Below, one piece after another: positions 42,401-45,400 of a stretch of DNA of 64,000 bases. This DNA is from Podarcis tiliguerta. Its lineage: Eukaryota. The position numbers are program-made. The stretch lies in NCBI GenBank assembly GCA_965153285.1, contig OZ229111.1; one strand, given 5' to 3'. Numbering within the stretch: position 1 is the first letter of the stretch; every line of letters begins with the position of its first letter.

Positions 42401-45400
42401 ACATAAAAATACATATACAGATTGTATCAGAAGGAAATGTCGAATCCTTACAGACTCCTAGAATTTTTCTGTGGAAGGTGCAATGCTGGCGGGGGGGGGG
42501 GGGCATGATGCGTCAATTAGTTTTACGTACTGGTTTGACTTTCCTGCCATGGTCTGTCATCTCTAATTCAGATAACATCACCTGCGTGACTTTAGCTACA
42601 GTTAAGGATGTTTTGCCTTCAGCTAGAACATTCTGATAATAATGGTTTCTTCCAAGAAAATGCAAACCATAACAGGCCATTTCATTTCTATGGGAGTACA
42701 GTACTTTTTGTCTTCTGAGTTCTACTATGTTGCTCCTTTCTGTTTTTTGCATTCTTCCTTGTTTGTGTTTAAAATAAGGGACATTGTCCTGAATTGTTTT
42801 TGGAACTGGGGACACCACAGAGCTGTCTCATTTAACTAGAGACTACTAAGGTTACTTTGTGAGCTTGTTCTCCCAGCTTATCCACACTTCCTCTCATCCT
42901 GCTGCTAAAGAGCAGATTTCCAATTGGAAAGGAGCGGGGCAAGGGGGGAACTGCTTGGACCCATGCCTTGAAAGTGTGGGTCATGCAGAAATCTGCAGGA
43001 AACTACTTGGACCCATGCTTTCTAGGCATGACATAAGTGAAAGTGTGGACTAGCCCTTCGTCAATCTGCTTACCAGTTAAGAAGACGGCAATCCTATATC
43101 CACTTACTTTAGGAAGCCCCATTAACCATAATAGAACTTCTGGATAAGCATGTATAGGATTGTGCTGTAAATCATTGTTTCTGACTGCAGGGCTACAAGG
43201 CCTCTCCTTTTTTATATAGGTTATGGTGATTTTTCATTCTTGCTGTAAGAAACACCTCTTTTCTTATGTCACTGCCTCATTGACACATTTTTCATATATC
43301 CTTAAAGTGTCACCCCTCTAAGACAGGCAGGAAAGGGAGATGTAGGAGGACTTATCCTCTTTGTTTTGGCAGAAGGGCTTGTTGAACCCACACTTGTTTC
43401 ATTAACATATGAACGGCTTGGAAATAGAATCATAGAATTATACGGTTGGAAGGGACCCCAAGGGTCATCTAGTCCAACCTCCCGCAATGCAGGAATTCTG
43501 CCCACAGCCGTCCCAACCTTCTGGTTAACAGCCAGGCACACTGATGGCCCATTGTGCCATCAGATGACTAATATTCTCCTTTGGTTTCAGAAAGTGGATC
43601 ACTTCACTACCTACAACTCCTTACACTCTTAAACTGAAACTGTAGAGTCCTGCAATTCTTTTTTTACAAACAAACATTGAAAAGATCATTTGGAGAAAAT
43701 GTTACAGTTTTCTACATTAATTTGTATGTGCTCATGTGTTTACTTTCAGCATAGCTCAGGGAAATCATGCCAACTCAAATCTGCTTCTCTGTTAATATCC
43801 CAGGGCTAGAACAGATGCAATAAATGCTACAGCAATCCTATGCATATTTACTCAAAAGTATGTCCCTATTGGACTTATCCCCAGGTCAGTGTATTATTTG
43901 TTGTTGTTGTTTTAAGCAGAAATACAGAAGAGGCTTTGGTTTCTATTGAAGTTTTCCAATTATTGGTGCCAATTCCTTGATCCCTTCCCCCACCCCCAAA
44001 CACAGACACACACACACAGAGAGAGAGAGAGAGAGCTGTTATTAACCCCAGGGAGGAAAGTTCACAGGCAACACAGGTACCTGTTGTTTTTATTGCAGAG
44101 CAGCTAATAAAAACTACTGCATTAAAACAGAAACGAAAGTTAAAGGATCCAGTTGTGAATCTGCCTTATCTTCAGCCCTCAGTTAATCAGAATATCAGAG
44201 GCTCCTTAAATTGGATCAGACTATTGCTCTGTCTAGGTCAGTATTACTGACCGGCTGCAGTTCTCCATGGTTTCAGACAGGAGCCTTTCCTAGCCCTAAG
44301 TGGAGATGCCAACGATTGAACCTAGCATCTTTTGCATACAAAGCCCATGCTTAACTATTGAGCTGTACCCCTTCTTCTATATTCATATCCATATGAAATC
44401 CATATTCATAATCCCAGCCCAACAAGGACAGGTCTGAACAGTGCATCTTTCATCTTGCCAAAGTTGCTAGAGAGATACTGATGGAGACCCCTGAGAGAGA
44501 CAGCCCCAGGTTGTAATGTCAGGAAATGTGATGTGGAATACTGTGGGCTTTCCTAGGTCAGTGGGTCCCATCTTGACCAATGAGGATTGAGAAAGGTTAG
44601 TATACCTATTTTTCTGGCTGCTTTAGTCTGGGACTGTTTGCAAGCTTTGGGACTTCCATTTCACAGAAGAGGGCCCTAGGTAGCCTGGCAGCTTGTGAAG
44701 CCTTAGTTCTCTGATGCCCTTGAGTATCAATGCACATGCAGCTGCAGCCCTTCAATACTTGCCTTGTGTTCAAGGCCCACATCCAGCAAAGAGCTCTTGC
44801 TCATGGCTGAGAGGAAGATGGCAAACCGCCAGGAGTATAGTTGGTCGCACTGATCAGCCATGTGCAGGAGGAAAGCAAAGTCGTTGTAGACATCTGGGAT
44901 GCCAAGAAAGTGACTGTCCTCTCGCATTTGCTTAAAGGAATACTTCTGCAGCGGCTGCCGCAGCAGCCACATCAGTGGGTAAGCCCCCACCACCCCATAG
45001 AGGAATACCAAGAACAGGTAGGTCACCATCAACTTCTGCAGAATGAAAGCCAAGCTGTGGTTACAGAGGAAAACAGAGTAGCCGGTGAGGTTCTCTGTGT
45101 CCAGCCAGCAAACATGTTCAAAGGAGATGGCTCCTATGCAGTTGGAGGTGTAGCCCAGCACAGTTAGGATCTTGGCAACTTTGAAGATTGTTTGTCCCAT
45201 GTAGACCATATAAATCAAGCTGGCACCTTCAGCATGTGCCCTGAATCTGCAGATCTTCTCAAAGAGTGCCCGGCCCTGCTCCCTCTCCTTCCAGTCAAGG
45301 ATAGGAGAGGATGAAGGGGAAATAAATTGTTCCTGACACCCTCTAGTATCCGTGGTTTTGGGTAGGTCTACGGAATTCTGGTAGCCCATTTCAGAGACGG

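Follow-up and report, generated by a model that had tools for sequence, protein, structure and literature searches.

A squamate LRRC8D-like gene that encodes the pore domain only, followed by a decaying remnant of its leucine-rich repeats

In current models of volume-regulated anion channels (VRACs), the leucine-rich repeat (LRR) domain of the channel subunits couples cell swelling to pore opening. We analysed a stretch of 64,000 nucleotides from Podarcis tiliguerta (assembly GCA_965153285.1, contig OZ229111.1; this whole stretch is referred to below as the window) that contains an LRRC8 family gene without this domain. Listing of open reading frames (ORFs) identified on the minus strand a frame of 387 codons (44730..45890, from an ATG at 45890) which encodes an LRRC8 pore domain only and ends in a TGA stop at the pore/LRR boundary (44727..44729, minus strand). 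Beyond the stop, frameshift-aware alignments detected on the same strand a frameshifted LRR remnant (44445..44726) that runs from LRR1 to about LRR4 and represents the first ~105 residues of an LRR domain.

The pore ORF contained no lesions over its 387 codons, and the letters of the window include no N. It encodes the four transmembrane helices and the extracellular and cytoplasmic subdomains of an LRRC8 protein without the LRRs, and the ~15-17 LRRs that a canonical LRRC8/VRAC subunit carries in the same polypeptide are absent. At E<=0.01, PF12534 (Pannexin_like) was the sole Pfam match, with E 5.9e-110 and 368 bits where the cut-off is 25; no LRR family was matched. In the PDB, the best solved relative was LRRC8D (E 4.9e-120, with the alignment covering residues 1-465), followed by LRRC8A (5.6e-102) and LRRC8C (about 1e-95), and the closest protein overall was a 387-residue protein of Podarcis raffonei (97% identical). 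A structure model built from 104 sequences was of moderate confidence (predicted local distance difference test (pLDDT) 63.2, predicted template modelling score 0.55), while an earlier model from 20 sequences was too poor for use (pLDDT 48.5). The helices were predicted at residues 23-49, 112-137, 223-254 and 281-311 (pLDDT 75-92). All 50 of the Foldseek matches listed against the PDB were LRRC8 chains, the best being LRRC8D chain 9dx7_E (E 7e-26, template modelling score 0.78 on the target). C54, C105, C155, C261 and C276 were invariant across 104 aligned LRRC8D and LRRC8D-like proteins, including the protein of the window; the invariant cysteines in the extracellular loops of LRRC8 presumably form disulfides. 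Sequence match, fold and family-invariant residues alike place this protein among LRRC8 pore domains. The PDB also holds a 458-residue LRRC8D chain (9t5p_E) deposited with full-length LRRC8A. A (TA)n run is located directly upstream of the pore ORF (45981-46010).

The preliminary description of this locus had named five LRR-like peptides after the stop. Three-frame translation recovered all five on the minus strand between 44726 and 44445, in the order given and in changing frames: ..GIRELRLHKLPG.. in frame 2, ..LPRALFCEMEVPKLA..QPEK* in frame 1, ..KIGILTFLNPH.. in frame 0, ..VFHITFPDITTW.. in frame 2 and ..SLRGLHQYLSSNF.. in frame 0. Plain tblastn over 38-47 kb with the exon-2 protein of the neighbouring LRRC8E-like gene matched the remnant only at E=32, and detected the pore at E 5e-83. 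We therefore relied on our own local protein-to-DNA aligner (BLOSUM62, frameshift -10, gaps -11/-1, stop -6). With a full-length caecilian relative (P0197), the alignment started at the ATG, passed through the stop and continued to residue 537, ending at 44445. LRR domains alone were then aligned to 44726-44400, and for each of them 200 pieces of the window of the same length and 200 dinucleotide shuffles served as controls. The caecilian LRR domain scored 69, which was reached by none of the 200 genomic controls (mean 32.7, standard deviation 5.3, maximum 55) and none of the 200 shuffles. The lungfish domain scored 60 (0/200 and 0/200) and the turtle domain 53 (0/200 genomic controls, 2/200 shuffles). 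The remnant therefore aligns to LRRC8 LRRs above every genomic control, and the match lies at the position predicted by collinearity with the pore. Thirty-six of 89 aligned codons in the remnant were identical to the caecilian protein, as against 54-62 of 108 in intact turtle proteins over the same stretch, whereas the pores of the lizard (226 of 385) and of turtles (226-234 of 406) were equally close to it. The remnant probably lies in the 3' untranslated region: a pattern scan placed the first AATAAA, a candidate polyadenylation signal, 632 nucleotides downstream of the stop (44089..44094, minus strand). Below the remnant, 44195-44375 on the minus strand resembles what we take to be a tRNA-derived short interspersed element, with empty ARAGORN and Rfam results and no second copy in the window. 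Repeat, Rfam and tRNA scans over 41-47 kb gave no explanation for the loss of the LRRs.

The number of frameshifts found in the remnant varied with the reference and with the penalty, and a penalty of -6 yielded up to 16 spurious ones. At -10, seven references gave 6, 3, 2, 5, 4, 6 and 6 frameshifts. The low counts came from alignments ending early, at 44609, and those reaching 44481-44439 contained 4-6 frameshifts and at most one in-path stop. Recurrent sites were located at about 44729, 44713, 44682-44685, 44638-44644, 44582-44614 and 44505, and the coelacanth alignment had one further frameshift at 44732, just inside the end of the ORF. One reference produced a compensating pair (45353/45340) in the variable cytoplasmic loop of the pore ORF. 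We rejected this pair as an artefact, as the frame there is open and conserved, and single frameshifts called in this way are therefore unreliable. The earlier estimate of about five frameshifts in ~270-280 bp is nevertheless a fair one, given the 4-6 in full-length alignments, known from the assembly, and its companion statement that the 1.16-kb pore ORF has none agrees with the 387 open codons. The probability that five of five lesions fall within 282 of 1443 nucleotides by chance is 2.9e-4, or 1.5e-3 without the boundary lesion. This test of lesion density, proposed in the preliminary description, is circular in part, since it is the first lesion that defines where the pore ends and the remnant begins, and we do not use it as the main argument. 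At the lesion density of the remnant, 16-25 frameshifts would be expected in the 1161 nucleotides of the pore in one lineage; none was observed. Judged roughly by general rates of substitution and indels, the state of the remnant (about 40% identity, 4-6 frameshifts and a few in-frame gaps in ~280 nucleotides) would be in keeping with neutral drift that began around the squamate stem.

On the minus strand from the end of the remnant to the CpG island of the next gene (41200..44444), neither our aligner nor tblastn detected any trace of LRRs 5-17. Caecilian residues 538-809 scored 45 against 44444-41200, a value reached by nine of 40 controls (mean 40.8, standard deviation 5.6), and when three LRRC8D-like LRR domains were run by tblastn over the entire window at E<=1, the sole match was the neighbouring gene's own LRR domain (56177-55032). 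Below 41.2 kb the next gene begins with its CpG island and first exon, so that no space is left for hidden LRR exons. The preliminary description had not found the rest of the domain, which stands; our searches go further, in that it is undetectable anywhere in the window and not merely hidden. A protein search with a turtle LRRC8D-like LRR domain, which scored the best 8000 candidates (435-1386 residues), returned turtle proteins (80-100% identity), with all further matches at 54% or less. The squamate proteins it matched were LRRC8D, LRRC8A and LRRC8B, and no squamate protein with an LRRC8D-like LRR domain was found among these candidates.

We next compared the pore ORF with its relatives. 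HMMER against 1.8 billion cluster representatives returned 196 relatives at E<=0.001, the best being a protein of 394 residues with 78% identity, and a search for proteins of similar length returned 49. These included near-complete proteins without LRRs (359-432 residues, 71-97% identity) from 11 named squamates (Podarcis, Rhineura, Pogona, Elgaria, Sceloporus, Phrynocephalus, Anolis, Hemicordylus, Sphaerodactylus, Lerista and Python), as well as one partial Varanus protein and four unnamed proteins. PF12534 was the only precomputed Pfam domain in every squamate orthologue listed. In the alignment, all 12 squamate rows, including that of the window, ended 5-60 residues past the ..LLDVxLDHEL.. 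motif. The ends of the gecko, skink, amphisbaenian and lacertid proteins were within one codon of one another, and in the Hemicordylus tail LRR1 could still be read in frame. A model from Crotalus horridus (P0192, 1209 residues) is a read-through fusion in which LRRC8E precedes the same pore-only protein, which implies that the two genes are neighbours in a snake too. Three short proteins of 40-42% identity (P0172-P0174) may be fragments of the LRRC8 genes of any vertebrate.

The longer relatives were labelled 'LRRC8D-like' and came from turtles, caecilians, axolotl, frogs, lungfish, coelacanth and cartilaginous fishes. These proteins have 772-841 residues with LRR Pfam domains and were 48-56% identical to the query. 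Their orthologous pores are 51-59% identical and share with the squamate proteins the motif ..NLDYQQY.., whose Tyr we take to be the outer pore constriction site. They continue into a complete LRR domain, whereas the squamate protein stops at the boundary. Short LRRC8D-like models from Caretta (P0165, 459 residues), gar (P0005, 487 residues) and lamprey (P0167, 501 residues) may be partial predictions and not additional cases of LRR loss.

Phylogenetic analysis placed the squamate proteins inside this group. In a short IQ-TREE search (42 rows, LRRC8E as outgroup), the squamate pore-only clade (support 100) was sister to turtle LRRC8D-like (96) within an LRRC8D-like clade including sharks (96), which was in turn sister to LRRC8D proper (98). 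FastTree with 104 rows, from which four mammalian LRRC8D rows were omitted, agreed. It placed the teleost 'Db' genes within LRRC8D, with no bird, mammal or teleost row in the LRRC8D-like clade. Squamates also possess a normal LRRC8D of 855-859 residues. LRRC8D is a separate paralogue with LRRs and a longer first extracellular loop; it is both the best solved and the best structural relative of the pore ORF (6m04, 9dx7). The suggestion that the parent gene was LRRC8D or LRRC8E was therefore not borne out, the trees identifying a separate old paralogue. The claim that the gene was originally full-length is upheld by the remnant together with the nesting of the squamate clade in full-length proteins. 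LRRC8D-like was found full-length in chondrichthyans, Polypterus, coelacanth, lungfish, amphibians and turtles and as the pore-only form in squamates, with no bird, mammal or teleost row of it among the matches listed. These comparisons point to LRRC8D-like as an ancient gnathostome sixth LRRC8 paralogue, the sister of LRRC8D. Stem branches of 0.62-0.93 in turtle, frog and squamate LRRC8D-like indicate that this paralogue is fast-evolving generally.

Conservation of individual sites in the squamate proteins followed that of their full-length relatives. Between 12 squamate rows and 26 full-length LRRC8D and LRRC8D-like rows, per-column conservation was correlated (Spearman 0.45, p 6e-21), and 75 of the 96 columns invariant in the full-length set were also invariant in squamates. 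Mean pairwise identity was 0.93 at the columns invariant in the full-length set versus 0.60 at the most variable ones. Squamate conservation dropped only after residue ~360, to 0.50 at residues 361-380 and 0.16 over the last seven, where full-length proteins have 0.65 and 0.64. Fixed squamate differences were present at five positions (T168M, A206G, Y348C, K354W and E370D), of which Y348C separates 12 of 12 squamate from 25 of 26 full-length rows, and K354W 11 of 12 from 24 of 26. As judged from these protein patterns, purifying selection on the pore ORF is supported. Y348C and K354W are located a few residues ahead of the ..RFAxFLS.. motif, within which lies the human LRRC8C gain-of-function variant V390L.

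Truncations of human LRRC8C reported in PMC11729881 are cut at the same pore/LRR boundary as the lizard protein and show that pore-only subunits of this kind can fold and assemble. They are de novo or engineered alleles of another paralogue, whereas in squamates the truncated state has become fixed and is conserved throughout the order. LRRC8C-trunc, in which seven foreign residues follow a cut after residue 399/400, assembles and forms constitutively active A/C channels. The construct t419, which is 19 residues longer, assembles robustly and gives very low currents with little response to swelling, and t379, which is 21 residues shorter, yields no detectable protein (PMC11729881). LRRC8C-trunc is a disease allele that acts through constitutive activity, whereas t419 leaves the channel nearly silent (PMC11729881). 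The ebouriffe mutation of mouse Lrrc8a is a natural premature stop after residue 442 that removes the bulk of the LRRs, lowers activity and impairs assembly and trafficking; in contrast to the conserved squamate gene, it is a laboratory mutation that affects the essential subunit and behaves as a recessive loss of function (PMC11729881). Residue 376 of the lizard protein aligns with LRRC8C 409, and V386 with 419. The t419 primer printed in PMC11729881 encodes the end ..DKLRQKL, and in the neighbouring LRRC8E-like protein (..DKLRQKLQT..) the last L of DKLRQKL pairs with lizard V386. The lizard protein therefore ends at LRRC8C 420, one residue past t419. Its conserved core ends near LRRC8C-equivalent 409, and the segment from 380 to 400 that is absent from t379 is retained.

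Taken as a whole, the locus is best explained, with high probability, as the squamate orthologue of LRRC8D-like, which lost its LRRs before the crown group, has kept its pore under selection and is likely to supply a subunit of LRRC8A channels. The preliminary description had proposed that the LRR part was lost long ago while the pore remained under selection, and the open proteins of 11 species, the Crotalus fusion, the nesting of the squamate clade and the conservation of sites all agree with this. The loss itself is placed before crown squamates diversified. On this reading, a truncating change at the pore/LRR boundary removed the LRRs before living squamates diverged. The first ~105 LRR codons were left beyond the new stop, where they have drifted, and the other ~270 can no longer be detected. 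The pore ORF remained under purifying selection, evolving faster than LRRC8D but with the same pattern of constrained sites. Its product would fold and oligomerise through the pore domain alone and most likely would enter LRRC8A-containing VRACs without the cytoplasmic LRR gating module. The missing module would shift how readily these channels open, towards either activation or damping. An LRR-less subunit kept across a vertebrate order would be a natural experiment on what the pore can do alone and which residues compensate, and the remnant, as a molecular fossil that can be dated, makes this a clean case of a lost domain.

Several observations weigh against this reading. Some of the protein ends in databases, such as the longer Anolis and Elgaria tails, may be products of model building. 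Both tree programs warned of long turtle and squamate branches meeting, so the sister relation may be overstated. The path from Podarcis to Rhineura is 0.28 changes per site for the pore-only gene versus 0.032 for LRRC8D in the same genera, about nine times shorter, and such fast evolution is as compatible with relaxed constraint as with a new role. Selection was read from protein patterns and the integrity of the ORF, and transcription and translation of the pore-only gene are predictions from sequence. Tuatara appeared in none of our searches, and the loss is dated only as earlier than crown squamates. Finally, the nearest engineered truncation, t419, is functionally compromised with LRRC8A (PMC11729881), and a channel-forming role of the lizard protein therefore cannot be assumed.

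The last point leads to the alternative that the protein is a non-conducting damper that lowers VRAC activity or trafficking. As described above, t419 assembles well and gives very low currents with LRRC8A, and the longer ebouriffe truncation reduces activity and impairs assembly and trafficking (PMC11729881). However, both are truncations of other paralogues, in human cells, and the squamate core ends near 409, between the activating and the silent constructs. The substitutions Y348C and K354W, which immediately precede the region described in PMC11729881 as an activation hotspot, could point either way. We consider a damping role possible, though unlikely.

The protein could also form a homomeric, pannexin-like large-pore channel independently of LRRC8A. 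Pannexins (PANX1-3) are four-helix large-pore subunits without LRRs, and the pore domains of LRRC8 proteins are homologous to them, as the family name of PF12534 reflects. At the presumed outer constriction, the squamate proteins carry the Tyr of ..NLDYQQY.. where LRRC8D has the Phe of ..NLDFQQY... Non-A LRRC8 subunits, however, generally depend on LRRC8A to reach the plasma membrane, and homomers conduct poorly. The lizard protein differs from pannexins in being an LRRC8 protein by sequence and descent, its LRR-less state being secondary. Truncated human LRRC8C does form homomeric oligomers in vitro (PMC11729881). A two-copy complex prediction of the pore-only protein scored 0.00 with the alignment ignored, which has no bearing either way. 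On balance, we regard an LRRC8A-independent homomer as rather improbable.

A single loss of the LRRs before crown squamates contrasts with several independent losses within the order. Tail lengths do vary (359-432 residues), and iguanian, anguimorph and snake proteins end in ..EDWxGHNF.. versus ..LQQQx* in gecko, skink and lacertid proteins. However, all of the ends lie in one short stretch, those of four deep lineages are within one codon, and our protein searches found no squamate LRRC8D-like protein bearing LRRs, which makes repeated loss very improbable.

It could further be argued that the whole locus is a dead pseudogene in which the pore is open by chance or because death was recent. 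The boundary stop followed by frameshifted coding remains, and the roughly ninefold faster evolution compared with LRRC8D between the same two genera, would be in keeping with this. However, the ORFs are open and end in the same region in 11 named squamates spanning the deepest splits, the 75 of 96 invariant columns are retained as in full-length proteins, and the expected 16-25 frameshifts were not found. We give this explanation almost no credence. The asymmetric decay put forward in the preliminary description thus holds for the LRR trace, which is decaying, and not for the locus itself. We likewise rejected classification as a unitary pseudogene, which applies to the LRR trace only, the pore being open in 11 species with these invariant columns kept. 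The evidence supports a pore-only LRRC8 subunit that arose by an old domain loss, and not a dying gene.

An assembly or annotation artefact might also be entertained, with a gene that is in fact full-length and either sequencing errors read as indels or LRRs encoded by a further exon, since the frameshifts are read from the assembly and the adjoining LRRC8E-like gene has an intron. This is extremely improbable given that only ~105 LRR residues can be traced and ~270 are absent up to the next gene and in the whole window, that the same truncated protein recurs in 11 species whose assemblies are independent, and that the turtle LRR search found no squamate LRRC8D-like LRR domain among its best 8000 candidates.

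The pore ORF is flanked by two genes on the same strand, the minus-strand order being LRRC8E-like gene, pore-only ORF and kinase gene. The upstream neighbour is a full-length LRRC8E-like gene (55026..58564, minus strand), which served as a reference within the window. Its coding exon 1 (58564-58427) and exon 2 (57278-55029, followed by the stop) were searched separately and never joined, and its LRR domain matched LRRC8D-like LRR domains in tblastn at E 8e-122 to 3e-92. Its intron of ~1.15 kb after codon 46 (..GCTLQ / VTQDK..) has no counterpart in the pore ORF, which is unbroken at the matching place. This is in line with a D-type ancestry, as LRRC8D likewise lacks an intron after codon ~46. 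We rejected the possibility that the intronless ORF is a processed retrocopy: it is 43% identical to LRRC8E, groups with LRRC8D and LRRC8D-like, and lies beside LRRC8E, as the Crotalus model implies for a snake as well. The downstream neighbour, also on the minus strand, starts in a CpG island (40146-41108, GC 0.56) with its first exon (MAASSLEQKLSRLEAK..) and has kinase exons at about 19975 and 17955. This gene is probably MAP2K7. Set beside the human gene order, the order in the window suggests that mammals lost an LRRC8D-like gene that once separated LRRC8E from MAP2K7.

The position of LRRC8D-like beside LRRC8E, seen in the window and implied by the Crotalus fused model, mirrors the neighbouring pair LRRC8C-LRRC8D. 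This hints at an ancestral two-gene LRRC8 cluster. Squamates date back ~200 million years. A wider proposal would combine these points: the pore-only protein may be a ~200-million-year-old, LRR-less tuner of the VRAC set point that co-assembles with LRRC8A, encoded by a sixth paralogue that arose when the two-gene cluster was duplicated in an early vertebrate. We put this forward tentatively, as a proposal that could well fail. If true, an LRR-less subunit biasing VRACs open or shut would parallel, in normal physiology, the boundary truncations of human LRRC8C. The locus also points to a sixth vertebrate LRRC8 member, absent from the mammal and bird rows among the matches listed.

In full-text literature outside subscription journals, we found no paper that joined LRRC8 with squamates or described an LRRC8 gene without LRRs. 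The terms 'LRRC8D-like' and 'lrrc8db' occurred only as names in fish studies, no published name was found for the full-length paralogue, and gene models are already public under the annotation 'LRRC8D-like'. In PMC6534595, lrrc8a serves only as a Z-linked marker and is not relevant here. The text of PMC13586245, the paper linked to PDB chain 9t5p_E, contains no word starting with 'truncat' and mentions no truncation construct. Within the window, we also observed a pair of 71-bp interspersed repeats with 84.5% identity, at 43425-43495 and 53359-53429, and (CA)n(GA)n microsatellites at 43991-44041 and 53236-53296.

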